Shown here in pieces: positions 6,161 to 30,556 of a stretch of DNA of 64,000 nucleotides. The position numbers and the translations under genes are program-made. Each line of letters starts with the position of its first letter. Position 1 is the first letter of the stretch. The stretch is taken from assembly GCA_048938105.1 (NCBI GenBank), contig JBHLMN010000001.1, positions 64,001-128,000 of the forward strand, written 5' to 3'. Source of the stretch: Promethearchaeota archaeon. GTDB taxonomy: Archaea; Asgardarchaeota; Heimdallarchaeia; Hodarchaeales; Hodarchaeaceae. The notes under the pieces are model-generated. The model did not search any database. It saw only the letters and a list, made by a program, of their open reading frames with translations, and was not told the DNA's origin.

Positions 6161-7325
6161 GTGAGAGAAATCGCTTCATTATGTTGATCGCAGAGTTTTT
6201 GTCGCGATCACGGACGATTCCACACACCTCACAGTGATAGATGCGTTCAGAAAGAAGCATCCTCTCTTTTATATGACCACAGACAGCACAGGTTTTGGTT
6301 GTATCCCGTTCATCAATTACTGTTACTCTTTTACCTAACTTTTTCGCTTTATAGGTCAGTAATTCGATAAAGCGACCTAGATGGCCAGTGTTGTGGACAC
6401 CACGATTAATACTCCTCTGATACTTCTTCTTCTCCCTCTTAATCATTCCATTTTTCTTGCCAGTCATTTGTTTAGGTGAGAGATCACCCGCGATAATGGT
6501 ATTGGCTTTGGTATTTTGTAAGAGGTTGATACTTTGCTTATGTTGCCAGTCCCTCGTTTGGTTTCGACATTTCCGTGTGATGGTCGCTAACCGTTGACTG
6601 AACAATCGGTGTCTGCGACTCCCCTGTTTGCAGTGATCTCTTCTCCGCTGCAAAGAGCGAATCTTCGGTTCCCAATATTTGTCGGGACGCTTGACCGTTG
6701 ATTCGAGAAATTTTCCATGTAGATTAATGGCCGTATGTTTAGTCGTACCAAGATCAAACGCTTGGTATAATCCATTGTCAATGAAAGGGGGATCCTCGTG
6801 GTCAAACGTAACTGCTAAGTAGAACTGCTTGTCATAGTGATCTTGAAAGATCTCAATCTGTTTAATGACGTAAGTAGAAAAGTCAAACGGGACTGGAAAG
6901 ATTAATTCTGTCTCACTCGGATGTTTGTGAGAGAATCGTATAGTCTGCTTCGTTATTTTAAAACCTGATTGATTGTAACATAATGTGAAAAAATAATCCT
7001 TGCCTCGGAAGGTTGGTGGCCGAACAGTATGATCTCCGCTCTTTAGTAACCCAAAAAATGATTTATACGCCGCGTCCAGCTTTTTAAGCGTCATTTGGAG
7101 GACTTTGGAGTAGACCTGGTTGTACCTAGGGAACAGCTTCTTTACTTGTGGTAAGGCGTTCTGCTGCTCTCTATAAGTAACACAATGGCTGTAGGTATCA
7201 TAAAGATATTTTCTTTCTGTTAGTGCATGGTTGTACAGTAGTCGACACGTCTCTGATAATTCCCGTAGTACCTCCTCCTGTTGTGGTGTAGGAATGACTG
7301 TGAACTTCCTTGTGAGAGTTACCAT
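6021..7325 (-). CDS. tnpB: RNA-guided endonuclease TnpB
   Basis: N-terminal PTPQQEEVL..CRLLYN; RuvC-I AFDLG; Zn finger CAVC/CEVC; RuvC-III RDKNSAINI. Confidence 0.93.
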   Translation of the reverse strand: MVTLTRKFTVIPTPQQEEVLRELSETCRLLYNHALTERKYLYDTYSHCVTYREQQNALPQVKKLFPRYNQVYSKVLQMTLKKLDAAYKSFFGLLKSGDHTVRPPTFRGKDYFFTLCYNQSGFKITKQTIRFSHKHPSETELIFPVPFDFSTYVIKQIEIFQDHYDKQFYLAVTFDHEDPPFIDNGLYQAFDLGTTKHTAINLHGKFLESTVKRPDKYWEPKIRSLQRRRDHCKQGSRRHRLFSQRLATITRKCRNQTRDWQHKQSINLLQNTKANTIIAGDLSPKQMTGKKNGMIKREKKKYQRSINRGVHNTGHLGRFIELLTYKAKKLGKRVTVIDERDTTKTCAVCGHIKERMLLSERIYHCEVCGIVRDRDKNSAINIMKRFLSHNALWTGYQYFINRIDNLRYTVNGKTKVSPHLVDKGFGELVGSPLL

Positions 7326-14677: not shown

Positions 14678-16489
14678 GTGAACACGCACATTTCAAGATT
14701 AATTATACATCCCACTGTTCGTCCTCAACAGCAACGTACTTTTAATGCTATTTCACAAAAATGGTCTCAATATAACTCTTTTTTTTGTTCACTCCCGACA
14801 GGATCTGGGAAAACCGATCTTGCTGCATGTATTATATCAGATTATCTTCAAACCAACTCATCAGATAAGATAGATATTTTGGTTCCCTATCGGATGCATC
14901 AAGATTTTTGGTTCAACATCTTACAGAAGTATGCTCGAAAACATGATTTTTCCGTTGCTTTATTAAAGGGAAGATCAGCATATTATTGTCCAATTATACG
15001 TTCAGGAGCAAATATCTCCCCTTGTGCATTTGATCCTTACTATGCTCAGAATTGTCGTTCAAAACGGCAGTGTCCTTTATTAAAAGCTCGACAACAAATC
15101 CGAAGAAGCCAAGTTCGAATTTTAAACTGGTGGGTCTTTAAATACGTAGATTTGGGGGAAGATAAAGCGACTTTCCGAATATTTGATGAAGCACATAATT
15201 TATTCAATCTAGAAAATTTATTGCGTGTGGAAATCAATAAGTCTTTTTTATTTAACATTACCCAAGACCAGGAATTATTGACCAAGTTTGTGAATTGGGA
15301 AAACAAGCTTAAGAAACGCCAATGGATTGAAGTAAAGCAAGATACAGGATTAAATTTCATACGACAACTCCAAGCTGTCTTAACTGAACGTGAAAGAAAC
15401 ATCGCCAAAATGTTGAATGAAAGTTCTCAGATTACCATTAAACTTGATTTGTTAAGAGAACTCCAAAAGATCACGGAGATGGTTGCTGCTCTTTCTGATT
15501 TAATTGCTAATCCCGTATCTTCAGATCTAACATTCTTTTTTCAACGTGACAAGTCAAAAAAACAAGTTCAACTTATTATTCAACCCTTTGAAATCGCATA
15601 CATTTTTACCCAATTATTTAGTGGAAGTAAGAACCTATTTTTGTCAGCAACAATTGGGGATGGTGAATACCTAGCTAAGTTACTTGGATTAAATACCCAA
15701 TATTGTCATTATATACATGAAGACTCCTCATTTGATAAAAAAAATCACCCTTTCATACTGTTGGAGGAAGCAGAGAAGCTTTCGACCGCAACTAGTGAGA
15801 AAAAGGGAAAATCATTTCAAATTATAAAAAATCAATCTCAAACTTTTCTTGATTTATTGAAACAACACCATTTACGTGCTTTGATTCTAACTTCTAGTTT
15901 TGAATTAGCTAATCTGATGTACGGACTTGCGAGGTCAAAACAGCTTGAAGTTATTACACATTCAGCTGGAAAATCAGACAAAGCTATTAAGAGTTTCATA
16001 TCAAATCGTCAAGGAGACGTTCTAATTACTCCTTCAGGGTGGGAAGGGATTTCCTTAGATGATGACCTAGCACGATTATGTATAATTCCAAAATTACCTT
16101 TTCCAATGTTGAGAGATCCAATTATTCAGAAAAAGGCTAAAAAGTATCCTCAATTCCTTGAGAACGACGTTTTAATATCAATACAACAAGCTCACGGTAG
16201 GATTCAACGAAATAGTGCAGATTGGGGAATATCTGTTTGTTTGGATGGAAATTTTCGATGGCTTAAAAGAAAACGAGCGAAGAGTCTAGAACCGTGGTTT
16301 TCAAACAGGATTCATGAAATCTCAATGTTGGAAGCAAAAAAGCTAATTCTTCAGTTGATTTCAGAACAAAGATTGGAAAAAACATCTAAATTATTATCAA
16401 AAACAAAAGCCCCAGCTTTTTCACGAATGAGTAAGAAAGATAGGGAATGGTTAGAATCAAGCGGTTTGGGAGATTTATTGAAAAAATGA
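14678..16489 (+). CDS. DinG/XPD-family SF2 helicase with Fe-S cysteines
   Basis: Q motif RPQQ, PTGSGKT, LKGRSAYYC..C..C..CP, DEAH, LSAT, WEGIS, QQAHGRIQR. Confidence 0.88.
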   Translation: MNTHISRLIIHPTVRPQQQRTFNAISQKWSQYNSFFCSLPTGSGKTDLAACIISDYLQTNSSDKIDILVPYRMHQDFWFNILQKYARKHDFSVALLKGRSAYYCPIIRSGANISPCAFDPYYAQNCRSKRQCPLLKARQQIRRSQVRILNWWVFKYVDLGEDKATFRIFDEAHNLFNLENLLRVEINKSFLFNITQDQELLTKFVNWENKLKKRQWIEVKQDTGLNFIRQLQAVLTERERNIAKMLNESSQITIKLDLLRELQKITEMVAALSDLIANPVSSDLTFFFQRDKSKKQVQLIIQPFEIAYIFTQLFSGSKNLFLSATIGDGEYLAKLLGLNTQYCHYIHEDSSFDKKNHPFILLEEAEKLSTATSEKKGKSFQIIKNQSQTFLDLLKQHHLRALILTSSFELANLMYGLARSKQLEVITHSAGKSDKAIKSFISNRQGDVLITPSGWEGISLDDDLARLCIIPKLPFPMLRDPIIQKKAKKYPQFLENDVLISIQQAHGRIQRNSADWGISVCLDGNFRWLKRKRAKSLEPWFSNRIHEISMLEAKKLILQLISEQRLEKTSKLLSKTKAPAFSRMSKKDREWLESSGLGDLLKK

Positions 16490-16654
16490 TCCTCATTTTG
16501 TTATTGAATTTCCTTTGCACAAGTCAATAAAACAAGTCTTATATTAAGAACAGGTTAAGTTAAATTTATAAAATTCCTAGTTAAATGATAACCTCAGATT
16601 TGATAAATCCACCAAATAAAAACATATTTAAGAGTAAATCGAGAAAAGAATCGC

Positions 16655-16920
16655 TAGGATCTATGACTAAGACGGGTCTAGTGTCAACGGGTGCAAAACC
16701 TTGCTCTTCGCATTCATCCCGGTAAGAATGGGAAATGGTCAGGTGGGCAGACAATTTTGGCCTAGACATCCCAACCGAATCACAGGAAGTCATGATTACC
16801 AGTAGAGTTAAAAATAAGCATTCCTGAAAGTTTGGTGAACAAACAGACAGGATAGAGGGCATAGGGTTATGCCCAATATGATGGAGGTTCGTATCGGTAA
16901 CGAGCTAGCTGATGATCCCA
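16655..16920 (+). ncRNA. Candidate structured non-coding RNA of unknown class
   Basis: GC-richer intergenic island with TATA-like TATTTAAG about 25 nt upstream. Nested pairings: GGATC/GATCC, ATGACT/AGTCAT, GTCTAG-GTCAA/TTGGC-CTAGAC, CATTC/GAATG, TCCTG/CAGGA, GTTTG/CAAAC, GGGCATA/TATGCCC, TTCGT/ACGAG. Confidence 0.6.
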
Positions 16921-16990
16921 TGTGAATACAAATGTCTATCTTTTATAGCATTTGTGATAACCTGTATACATATATTGTGGTGAAAGCGAA

Positions 16991-17842
16991 TTGTATTTTT
17001 CCTTATTCCCTCCAATATCGATTGAGGGGCCAACAACGGAGAAAAACTTAGATATACCTGGACTAGAAGCGCTGAAATCTGTTCAGGTTTCGCCTGATAA
17101 GGTTAGTTGTGTCCTTGATATCGATGGTAGTACCCGAACAATCGATGTGATTAATTTCAATGATCCCAGTCCAGACATAAACCACCGTATTGAAATCGAT
17201 GATAAATTTCCTTTAGAGCTCATGCCACTTGTAACAATAGAGTTATTAGAAGATTTAGCTCAGAAAATTGGAGGATATACCCTAATTTTTACAAACCCTC
17301 CCGAAGCTGGATATTTCGAATTCTACCGTGGAGATTTTTATCCTATTTCCATTCGTGGAACTGATAAACAGCTTTATGCTTCCACTGCTGAACTACGGCC
17401 TCTAAGAAATGATTATTTCGTCGCATTGAACAGTTTGCTTGAAATTGATTTCGAGTCACAGCTCGAAACCTCTCTCGCAACCTTTTCTGAAAATGTCCTT
17501 AAACCAATGTCTACAACAATGGATGAAGTTTTCTCTTTGGATAATGAGTTAGATTCTGATGACTCAATTGTCAATATCATTGGTAGTGATTTTAAGCGAC
17601 TTATTTCCCGAACAGATCAGCTTATCACCATTGTTAGTTATCATATGGATCAAACAGCAGAACGGAATAAAGCCTTCCTCCGTTTAACTCTACCTCTGAT
17701 GTTAAAACAAGCCCTCCTTGAGAACTTTACAGAATATCTCCAATTTGAAGCGGAAAATTCTGAGCTTAGACTAAAAATCATTAAACGAAAGAGCCTAGCC
17801 GTTGAAGACCTTTTGAATCTAATTTTGAAATCTCTTCAATAA
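16991..17842 (+). CDS. Hypothetical acidic protein
   Basis: 283-aa ORF with upstream GGTGA; no recognisable motif. Confidence 0.7.
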   Translation: MYFSLFPPISIEGPTTEKNLDIPGLEALKSVQVSPDKVSCVLDIDGSTRTIDVINFNDPSPDINHRIEIDDKFPLELMPLVTIELLEDLAQKIGGYTLIFTNPPEAGYFEFYRGDFYPISIRGTDKQLYASTAELRPLRNDYFVALNSLLEIDFESQLETSLATFSENVLKPMSTTMDEVFSLDNELDSDDSIVNIIGSDFKRLISRTDQLITIVSYHMDQTAERNKAFLRLTLPLMLKQALLENFTEYLQFEAENSELRLKIIKRKSLAVEDLLNLILKSLQ

Positions 17843-28443: not shown

Positions 28444-29382
28444 ATGAATATCGATCCCTTTTTTGAAACGAATATCAAAACAACACCAAATAAGCAAACT
28501 TTCGTATCAAAAGTGGGCTTGATAGGGGTTTTTTTATGTTCTTTTGATACTACTTATGGTTTACAGATCCTATTTTCCATTCCATCAAAATTACAGCATG
28601 ATCAAAATGAAATTAACATCCTGAAGACACATTGTGTATGGAAAATAGAAAATGTACCTCTCCGAATTGACCTGAAGTTTTCAGAATTTGTATATTCAGC
28701 TTTTCAGCTCCAAACGACTTCACAGGAAATAACACCACCGAAGGATCAACCAATTTATGGTATTGTAATAAAAAATTGGAAAGATATTAATCCCATTCCA
28801 AATGAGGTTTATCTTGATTTTAAAACCACTTTAGAATCAAGTATCGCTTCAGAGCTCGGATTGTTATACAAGCGTGAACGATTAGAATCAAATCCTATTA
28901 AAAAAAAGGAATACAAAAAGCTTGTAAAACTCACAGAAAAAACTGAAAGACAACTAAAATCTATGTGGAAGAAATTCTGTATCCGTATTGGTGAAAAGAT
29001 TGATACTTTTACCACAGAGATAATTCCAAGCCCAGTTAATTCTTCCATGGTTCCAATAGAAACAAGTCAATGTGCTCAGGAGTTATTTAAACAGAAAATA
29101 ACCATGAGGATCTTATCATCAGAGGATACAGGGGGATTAATGGTAATTTTAGTTAATCAGAGTGAGCATTTGAAGGATGTATTGATTCAGGTATCAAGAA
29201 GAACTGAATTTTTCAGTGAACCTATCTGGGAGCAAGAACTTGAAGATTGGCCGTTGAAAGAGGATTTAATTTTGGAATTTCCCAGATCCGATGTAGTCGA
29301 AAATTATCTCATCAGAATTAGTAGCAGAAAAACAACGATAGACATAAAATCTCTTGAGGTTGGTACAGCTTCTGTCAGTTAA
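28444..29382 (+). CDS. uDENN/longin-like protein + shared C-terminal beta domain
   Basis: IGVFLCSFDTTYGLQILFSIP matches the uDENN F-D-x-x-x-G pattern; C-terminal domain homologous to those of 29483 and 31035. Confidence 0.65.
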   Translation: MNIDPFFETNIKTTPNKQTFVSKVGLIGVFLCSFDTTYGLQILFSIPSKLQHDQNEINILKTHCVWKIENVPLRIDLKFSEFVYSAFQLQTTSQEITPPKDQPIYGIVIKNWKDINPIPNEVYLDFKTTLESSIASELGLLYKRERLESNPIKKKEYKKLVKLTEKTERQLKSMWKKFCIRIGEKIDTFTTEIIPSPVNSSMVPIETSQCAQELFKQKITMRILSSEDTGGLMVILVNQSEHLKDVLIQVSRRTEFFSEPIWEQELEDWPLKEDLILEFPRSDVVENYLIRISSRKTTIDIKSLEVGTASVS

Positions 29383-29482
29383 CTTAAAGATCACTAGAAT
29401 TAACAATAAAGTTGCAAAAACATTTTAGGTTTTGTAAGATTGATGTATTGCATCAGAGAAAGCTCTTATAATCATTTAAAAA

Positions 29483-30556
29483 TTGCCTAATCTCGAAAAA
29501 AAGGAGAAATATCTAGTTATGAGACATGGGGATCTGTCCCAAGCCACAGATATTGATCAATCAACCACAAATGATACTTATGGATTTTTTCTCTACTTTT
29601 TTGATGAAATTCAAGGGCATGTCCCCCTTTTTGCTTATCCACAAGAATTACTTAATAATAAAAACGAAAAACAGATTATTTCGATTCACAGTATTTGGTG
29701 GCATCAAGATAAGTTCTTAGAATTAAATAAGTTTATCTCCATGGATCTGGAATTAGGAGGAGTTATTTACTGTGCTACTCTCATTTTATGTCAAACTAGG
29801 AGAACTAAAAGACGGTCTGGTATGGATTCTCAGAAATGGCAAGCAGAGAGATTTGTTTTAATCGTAAAAGCCCCCTCGGCGGTCTCTTTCATTGCTCAAG
29901 AGATTTTACATGAATTAAAAACGAGGATACAAGGAGTTATTGGCGAAAATTTGTGTTTTCTAGTAGAAGACCACCTTAAAATGCAAGAAGATCCAGAGTT
30001 TGGAGAACTTCTGAAAAAAAAATCTAATCATATTGAACAAGAGCTTGTAAAGCTGTGTGTCTCGTTAATTCCTAAAACCCCTATATCAAAACTTGACTTT
30101 CAGTTAGAAGGAGGGTCCCAAGAAAAAATAGATGAATTGTTGGCTCCAACCATTCAAACACCACAAGAACAACAAAAGCCCCTGAAAAAACCCCAATTAA
30201 GATTTTCAATACCCATGGGGGATAAGCATAAAATAAAAAGGGAAAAACACGAGGTAACTCTAGCTCCAGAAGCAAAACGTGTAAAAGTAGTAAAAATCAA
30301 GCGTTCTGAAGATGATAAGTTCGTTCAAGTAACTGTTCGTAATAATAGTTTAGATGTTATTAACAATGCTCTTCTAAAAATATATGAATCACAGGGATTT
30401 TTCGGAAACGACATTCTTATTTCGAGGCTGAAGAAATGGGCACCAAATGAGGAGATTTCCATTGAATTTGAGCTAGCTAATACAACTGGAATTATCTATT
30501 TCCTGAAGATTGAAGATGAAAAAGAAACGATAAAAGTAAAAAGAATCGTTGGATAG
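29483..30556 (+). CDS. uDENN/longin-like protein + shared C-terminal beta domain
   Basis: YGFFLYFFDEIQGHVPLFAYP; paralogous to the upstream gene (HSIWW vs HCVWK; MDLEL vs IDLKF). Confidence 0.65.
   Translation: MPNLEKKEKYLVMRHGDLSQATDIDQSTTNDTYGFFLYFFDEIQGHVPLFAYPQELLNNKNEKQIISIHSIWWHQDKFLELNKFISMDLELGGVIYCATLILCQTRRTKRRSGMDSQKWQAERFVLIVKAPSAVSFIAQEILHELKTRIQGVIGENLCFLVEDHLKMQEDPEFGELLKKKSNHIEQELVKLCVSLIPKTPISKLDFQLEGGSQEKIDELLAPTIQTPQEQQKPLKKPQLRFSIPMGDKHKIKREKHEVTLAPEAKRVKVVKIKRSEDDKFVQVTVRNNSLDVINNALLKIYESQGFFGNDILISRLKKWAPNEEISIEFELANTTGIIYFLKIEDEKETIKVKRIVG

Follow-up and report, generated by a model that had tools for sequence, protein, structure and literature searches.

Does the structured stretch between a DinG-like helicase gene and the next gene in a Hodarchaeales genome encode a new cellular RNA, or does it belong to something larger? 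The question was raised by a first-pass annotation of the window (the whole 64,000-nt stretch of DNA that was analysed, positions 64,001 to 128,000 of contig JBHLMN010000001.1), in which a GC-rich island at 16655-16920 was proposed to be a novel Asgard non-coding RNA of about 265 nt. The GC content is 0.48-0.50 at 16650-16800 as against 0.24-0.29 in the flanks, and the Asgard lineage agrees with the related contigs, which belong to Candidatus Hodarchaeota. The stretch does correspond to a non-coding, structured RNA that is probably transcribed and has a conserved TATA box of its own. Nevertheless, the unit exceeds the proposed span, with its ends at 16545 and 16963, and constitutes a multi-copy mobile element, the 3' half of which is a TnpB omega-RNA and right end.

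Taken as a whole, the plus-strand sequence 16545-16963 is best explained, with high confidence, as a protein-less element of 419 bp derived from a TnpB-only (IS1341-like, IS200/IS605 superfamily) insertion sequence. The unit is a variant of a known element type and not a new cellular RNA. Its sequence is best read as a PATE-like, promoter-bearing orphan guide-RNA cassette, with TnpB acting in trans. One candidate "novel Asgard ncRNA" is thus removed, its 3' half being a TnpB guide-RNA scaffold, and the annotation of this orphan omega-RNA cassette from an Asgard archaeon gains its exact ends, a candidate TAM (TAT) and a predicted guide. What remains of interest is the conserved, covarying 5' domain and promoter that stand in place of a tnpB gene.

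No Rfam family accounts for the locus, as the annotation had supposed. There was no Rfam match at the gathering score in the whole window, and a scan of 16450-17100 at E<=10 returned only noise, namely HgcG, mir-190 and SNORD48, the last on the opposite strand with 14 bits (E=2). SRP RNA and RNase P RNA, already doubted for want of their signatures, could be rejected because both are found elsewhere on the contig (137 bits for RNase P RNA, 70 bits for SRP RNA), and neither model matches here.

Extent of the element and its insertion site

The features that delimit the element are as follows.

16542..16544, + strand: TAT abutting the element on its 5' side, a candidate target motif or TAM; NTAT precedes the copies
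16545..16963, + strand: whole protein-less element; similarity among the seven genome copies begins and ends here
16964..16983, + strand: predicted guide segment in the flanking DNA, placed by position only

Pairwise identity between the seven full genome copies is 0.72-0.88 inside the element as against 0.22-0.29 in the flanks, and the similarity stops abruptly at both 16545 and 16963. All copies end in ATAACCT and then diverge, the sequence after GATAACCT being different in every copy; in the window it matches the right half of the empty site. No conserved protein gene is present inside the element, the sole ORF being an antisense frame of 93 aa.

The element follows TAT in the spacer that separates the DinG-like helicase gene from its downstream neighbour, a single-copy ortholog in the genus. 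In seven relatives, the corresponding spacer measures 120-136 nt, contains no element and reads AAGTCTTATAT followed directly by GTA, so that CTTATAT abuts GTA at the empty sites. The spacer of the window is 504 nt long, with the element exactly between TATAT and GTATAC. NTAT precedes 9/9 copies in which the left junction is present, that is, the seven genome copies and the metagenome copies L103 and L088; L103 is the same insertion as L004, and L092, the left end of which is cut off by the end of its contig, falls outside this count. Together, NTAT before the copies, the empty site and the unrelated flanks indicate IS200/IS605-type behaviour, in which TAT would be the target motif or TAM.

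Compared with the empty sites (L049-L055), about 40 nt of spacer are gone to the right of the insertion in the window, between ATATAT and GTGGTGAAAGC (16964-16990). The conserved TATA-like motif of the downstream gene, CTTATAT, now lies on the far side of the insertion. Since this gene starts 27 nt past the right end and is cut off from CTTATAT, it may depend on read-through from the element. Promoter donation to downstream genes is not general, given that the next gene runs in the direction of the copy in five cases and converges on it in four.

The right half as a TnpB omega-RNA scaffold

Judged by homology, the right ~150 nt is a conserved TnpB omega-RNA scaffold and right end. Stem counts below refer to the last 175 nt aligned in 33 copies, seven of them protein-less and 26 of the TnpB family (intact or truncated).

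16816..16963, + strand: TnpB omega-RNA scaffold and transposon right end; homology to tnpB 3' ends, stems in 33 copies
16822-26/16848-52: stem A (UCCUG/CAGGA), enclosing hairpin 16830-44; 100% of cells paired, 2 double-sided changes
16857-63/16868-74: stem C (GGGCAUA/UAUGCCC vs GGAUGUA/UACAUCC); 89% paired, 3 double-sided changes
16865..16869, + strand: GGUUA, candidate pseudoknot partner of UAACC (16958-16962) beside the guide, from complementarity
16876-81/16918-23: outer stem, enclosing stem D; 83% of cells paired, 3 double-sided changes
16888-92/16904-08: stem D (CUAGC/GCUAG); 95% of cells paired, 1 double-sided change
16923..16925, + strand: relic tnpB stop codon, TGA in CATGTGAATA, aligning with the stop of 402-aa TnpB ORFs
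16928-34/16949-55: right-end hairpin ACAAATG/CATTTGT; 97% of cells paired, 4 double-sided changes
ending at 16963: terminus GATAACCT

Over 16812-16963, the identity to the 3' termini of 402-aa TnpB ORFs and their right ends is 70-82%. Six of the copies in this genome have a 3' module that overlaps the final ~90 nt of a same-strand ORF of ~402 aa. These ORFs match Pfam OrfB_IS605 (6.5e-25) and Cas12f1-like TNB (9e-13), and can therefore be assigned to TnpB; the genome has 23 TNB-domain matches in all and six intact TnpB of related full-length copies. The right ends of the TnpB copies read GAUGACCUCAUG-UGA(stop)-AUA, then the hairpin, then the terminal AAUAACCU, and the layout in the window is identical. 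The terminus GTGATAACCT is likewise common to the element and the TnpB copies.

Three hairpins had been recognized in this half from the letters alone. They are conserved in 33 copies, and because they recur in the TnpB copies, they are stems of the TnpB omega-RNA/right-end module. Compensatory changes, which had been named as a check on the fold, are present. Two other elements of the proposed fold did not survive comparison. The GGATC/GATCC end stem exists in the window copy only, the other copies reading GAATC and GACCT, and the downstream T-tract (16941-16944), which forms part of the right-end hairpin loop, is confined to this copy. Stem D is weakened in the window copy by one C-U mismatch and two wobbles.

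Besides the nested stems, GGUUA and UAACC are complementary in 162/165 cells (98%; 33 copies), although both segments are invariant and hence show no covariation. Counted from the guide, they lie at about -100 and about -5, where the pseudoknot of the ISDra2 omega-RNA is also located (PMC10097598). A long-range helix GUCAUUAA/UUGAUGAC is predicted in the tnpB-bearing copies and is partly possible in the window via AGUCAU; it competes with the local outer stem, which has better support. The string UGAUGA (16910-16915) is kept in all copies within an asymmetric internal loop rich in G-A steps, and in autonomous copies it is also tnpB C-terminal coding sequence. A possible K-turn in the UGGAG/UGAUGACC internal loop gives no clean fit to the canonical three-nucleotide bulge.

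Left end, promoter and 5' structured domain

The left part of the element comprises four segments.

16545..16620, + strand: left-end region, in which GTTAAATTTATAA is conserved and the right-end 9-mer TGATAACCT is repeated (16588-16596)
16620..16632, + strand: putative archaeal promoter, an A-rich BRE-like stretch and TATA TATTTAAG (16625-16632), from conservation
16657..16798, + strand: 5' structured domain of 142 nt, seven helices closed by AAUC-U-AUGACU/AGUCAU-GAUU, from the consensus fold
16799..16815, + strand: variable linker; mean pairwise identity 0.61, the lowest in the element

Apart from its own family, the left ~270 bp (left end, promoter and 5' domain) has no relative in the genome or in the fetched TnpB loci, neither in their left ends nor in their coding parts, when searched by BLAST, local alignment with shuffles and nhmmer. 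An origin by simple deletion leaving a left end and a right end is therefore not supported. The TnpB copies' own left ends are heterogeneous. The terminal 9-mer of the right end (16955-16963) recurs at 16588-16596, where it is moderately conserved among copies; it may serve in recognition by a transposase or may mean that the left end arose from a right end.

The TATA box noted upstream of the island lies about 25 nt before 16657 and is kept as TTTTTAAGA in every copy, the promoter stretch being conserved as AAAACATTTTTAAGA in all of them. A sister family in genome G020 has TTTAAAAAG at the equivalent place. A promoter, a start site and read-out into the guide are predicted.

The 5' domain is as conserved as the scaffold (identity 0.87 vs 0.855), whereas the linker (0.61) and the left end (0.72 mean pairwise identity) drift faster. 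Its annotated stems, ATGACT/AGTCAT and GTCTAG(T)GTCAA/TTGGCCTAGAC, are conserved with compensatory changes, and 98% of cells pair in the consensus fold. Columns that vary are fewer among paired than unpaired positions (11/84 vs 29/56, p=1e-6), a test that is partly circular because the fold was predicted from the same alignment. Several invariant G-U pairs fit the plus strand only, which is the tnpB strand.

Diverged relatives of the domain were detected with a covariance model in a fourth genome, G020, in which they form a repeat family of ~530 bp (L074, L076 and L078; copies 89-90% identical) and a decayed copy, L071 (G020:C64:9922-10061, minus strand). The order in this family is TATA, 5' domain, omega scaffold and terminal AATAACCT. 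The 5' domains of the 419-bp and G020 families are too diverged for BLAST to link. The long stem reads GUCUUAAAACAA/UUGUUUUUAGAC in G020 instead of GUCUAG-U-GUCAA/UUGGCCUAGAC, and the closing stem CCGACC/GGUCGG instead of AUGACU/AGUCAU. In the 11-sequence alignment that includes G020, 8 pairs are changed on both sides and 0/500 shuffles reach 8, a count that leans towards structure because the alignment was fitted to the model. A second covariance model recovered nothing further in the genus, and among 82 genomes of the class covariance models never placed the 5' domain outside these elements. No intact close TnpB was found in the 88%-complete G020 assembly.

Copies, distribution and mobility

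Among the 60 related genomes covered by the DNA search, seven full copies occur in three Hodarchaeota genomes: the window copy and one on contig C6 in this genome (G000), one in G005 and four in G012. Three more were found in metagenome contigs (L103, L088 and L092). Ten copies are thus known, of which nine are independent, L103 being the L004 insertion of G005 in a related strain, and 8/9 are complete. With the exception of this L004/L103 pair (one insertion in two strains), the flanks of the copies are unrelated. Pattern scans of metagenomes returned 0 matches at first and 16 in a second round, only 3 of which were real by covariance model. A 19-nt match in a Mangrovicoccus MAG (L037) was dismissed as chance. 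Four DNA runs yielded no more than contig pieces of the element and of its relatives, with no joint across the element.

The right-end module is more widespread than the whole. The last ~113-150 nt occur 11 times in this genome and are present in 10/20 congeneric genomes; the same DNA search of 60 related genomes found none outside the genus. Elements bearing the 5' domain are restricted to 4/21 genomes of one genus. The nearest right-end relatives (L006, L007, L017 and L018) are in genomes that lack the 419-bp family.

To judge from the copies and their junctions, the element has moved as a unit to many sites. Its present-day mobility in this genome is doubtful, since no Y1 transposase (PF01797) was found in G000, a 99%-complete genome; G012 has one partial match. 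The serine recombinases of this genome adjoin other TnpB families. As for the end hairpins, the right-end one is strong and the left-end one is clear only in L004/L103.

Proposed function and relation to known systems

In the proposed mechanism, transcription would start near 16657, cross the 5' domain and the scaffold, and run past the right end into the flank, which would supply a guide of ~16-20 nt from 16964. TnpB from related full-length copies, such as the six intact ones in this genome, would bind the scaffold in trans and could cut sites consisting of TAT plus the guide sequence. Such sites correspond to the empty donor site, and cutting them would help the element to be retained (homing). 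In place of the tnpB mRNA, the omega-RNA source of autonomous elements, this one would use its 5' domain and promoter. Their most likely contribution is to provide expression and a stable folded 5' end. If they serve as such an expression and stability platform, the element would illustrate how guide RNAs uncouple from the nuclease gene, and the pair could be used as a natural 5' module for omega-RNA expression in archaea.

The nearest described counterparts are palindrome-associated transposable elements (PATEs), which are IS200/IS605 derivatives that have no protein gene and frequently encode omega-RNAs (Meers et al., 2023; PMC10055086). Use of the omega-RNAs of PATE-like elements in trans has been proposed (PMC10055086). 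The present element resembles them in having no protein gene, a right end and omega scaffold common to TnpB elements, several sharp-ended copies, an empty site in relatives, and a presumed need for TnpB and transposase in trans. Nevertheless, PATEs share both ends with the autonomous parent, whereas this element shares the right end only, and its left ~270 bp contains a conserved TATA-like promoter and a covarying multi-helix domain of 142 nt. A classical PATE of the same TnpB family is represented by L006 in G002, unlike the present element.

In ISDra2, the omega-RNA has a core scaffold of 116 nt, preceded by a 5' region that is disordered and can be dispensed with (Nakagawa et al., 2023; PMC10097598). 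Similarly, the scaffold here extends from the tnpB 3' end through the right end with a core of ~116-150 nt, the predicted guide is flanking DNA, and the nucleotides that precede it are complementary to others ~100 nt upstream, the candidate pseudoknot. There is, however, no sequence similarity, and the candidate TAM is TAT rather than TTGAT. The RNA of the element also lies outside a tnpB gene, with a putative promoter of its own and an ordered, conserved 5' extension that replaces coding sequence. Since the matching region of the ISDra2 omega-RNA is disordered and dispensable, TnpB probably makes no contact with the 5' domain. A further comparison is with IStrons (IS607/IS605 elements with a 5' group I intron; 10.1101/2023.11.20.567912), which likewise carry a structured RNA module in the left part on a transcript shared with the omega-RNA. 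Unlike them, the element has no group I intron match and its 5' domain is only 142 nt long; moreover, 4/9 copies are convergent to the downstream gene, so that splicing is unsupported.

Alternative explanations

Three other accounts retain the mobile-element framework. Under one, the 142-nt domain is an undescribed structured RNA module that protein-less Hodarchaeales TnpB elements acquired together with the promoter, making the right end a self-standing guide-RNA gene, with the domain as a platform for expression, processing or stability, or as a site at which a host protein docks. If true, transcription of the guide would not depend on the nuclease gene, an arrangement known from CRISPR loci; in this specific form the proposal appears unlikely. 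Another takes the locus for an inert, decaying relic, whose conserved structure reflects recent common ancestry with no RNA function left. This would suit the lack of a Y1 transposase in the genome, the small number of full copies (two here, ten known overall), the weakened stem D and copy-specific T-tract of the window copy, and the clear decay of L071 in G020. The MFE z-scores, suggested as a check, are also modest at -1.75 (266 nt), -1.34 (5' domain) and -2.28 (3' domain); the sequence does fold into the annotated stems, and thermodynamics alone is weak. A relic, however, does not readily explain why variation in the 5' domain avoids paired columns, why the few stem changes are wobble-compatible or compensatory, why linker and left end drift faster than both RNA domains, or why TATA is retained in two families that BLAST cannot link by their 5' domains, and it is considered quite improbable. 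The domain could instead be an independent functional RNA cargo (a regulatory RNA, a self-processing element or an L7Ae host-factor platform) that the omega-RNA module merely spreads. Conservation equal to that of the scaffold, a closing helix and covariation of its own, the absence of any relation to tnpB sequence and retention of the two-domain layout in the diverged sister family would all be expected of cargo. Yet the domain matches no Rfam family, is always accompanied by the omega-RNA module among 82 genomes of the class, has a narrow range of 4/21 genomes in one genus, and no catalytic or K-turn signature could be established for it, which leaves cargo quite improbable as well.

Two readings outside this framework fare worse. 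The first-pass annotation had suggested a long box C/D-type RNA that binds L7Ae and has a structured 5' extension, in a U3-like layout, from box-like strings that do exist in the window copy; the conserved UGAUGA in its G-A-rich asymmetric loop could be cited for it as well. Against this, box D (16909) reads CTGA in the window copy and TTGA in every other, many copies have ACGATGG (ACGAUGG in RNA) for box C' ATGATGG, the boxes stand >30 nt apart instead of the expected ~12 nt, no Rfam C/D family matches above noise, and UGAUGA doubles as tnpB C-terminal coding sequence. The likeness to archaeal box C/D sRNAs is limited to the short strings and the G-A-rich loop, whereas the element is a multi-copy, mobile homologue of tnpB 3' ends with unconserved boxes and the wrong spacing and size. 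This identity is extremely improbable. The antisense frame (16581..16862, - strand) is judged not to be a gene. A frame of 70-93 codons is open in 5/7 copies with dN/dS of 0.46-0.87, slightly below the other two frames, but it is broken in the remaining two, L023 and L015, dN is ~0.2, the dN/dS values are far from coding ones, no Pfam family matches, and the G-U pairs and the tnpB orientation indicate the plus strand. As the annotation expected, there is no conservation at the protein level, and a real gene here is very improbable. The protein-less, TnpB-derived element with its guide-RNA scaffold is accordingly the reading preferred here.

Related loci elsewhere

Several observations were made at other loci. 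On the minus strand of the window at ~6180-6377 (G000:C52:70180-70377), a TnpB TNB-domain match of 74 bits lies in a 445-aa open frame and represents another TnpB family. A Resolvase (serine recombinase) adjoins TnpB matches at G000:C52:247713-249309, C64:32774-34620, C14:392490-393992 and C59:3-1447; these are IS607-type elements, separate from the TnpB-only family of the present element. L006 (G002:C58, ~29300-29830) combines left-end sequence (~190 nt) from the L017/L008 TnpB subfamily with ~175 nt of right end, the latter 94% identical to that of the C6 copy. The SRP RNA at G000:C52:297893-298199 (L002) scores 70 bits, below the gathering score of 96.5 of the Rfam archaeal model, so that standard annotation would miss it. 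At G000:C6:191824-193436, two right-end/omega modules that are 94% identical lie 1.5 kb apart, the first after a truncated tnpB and the second without an upstream tnpB.
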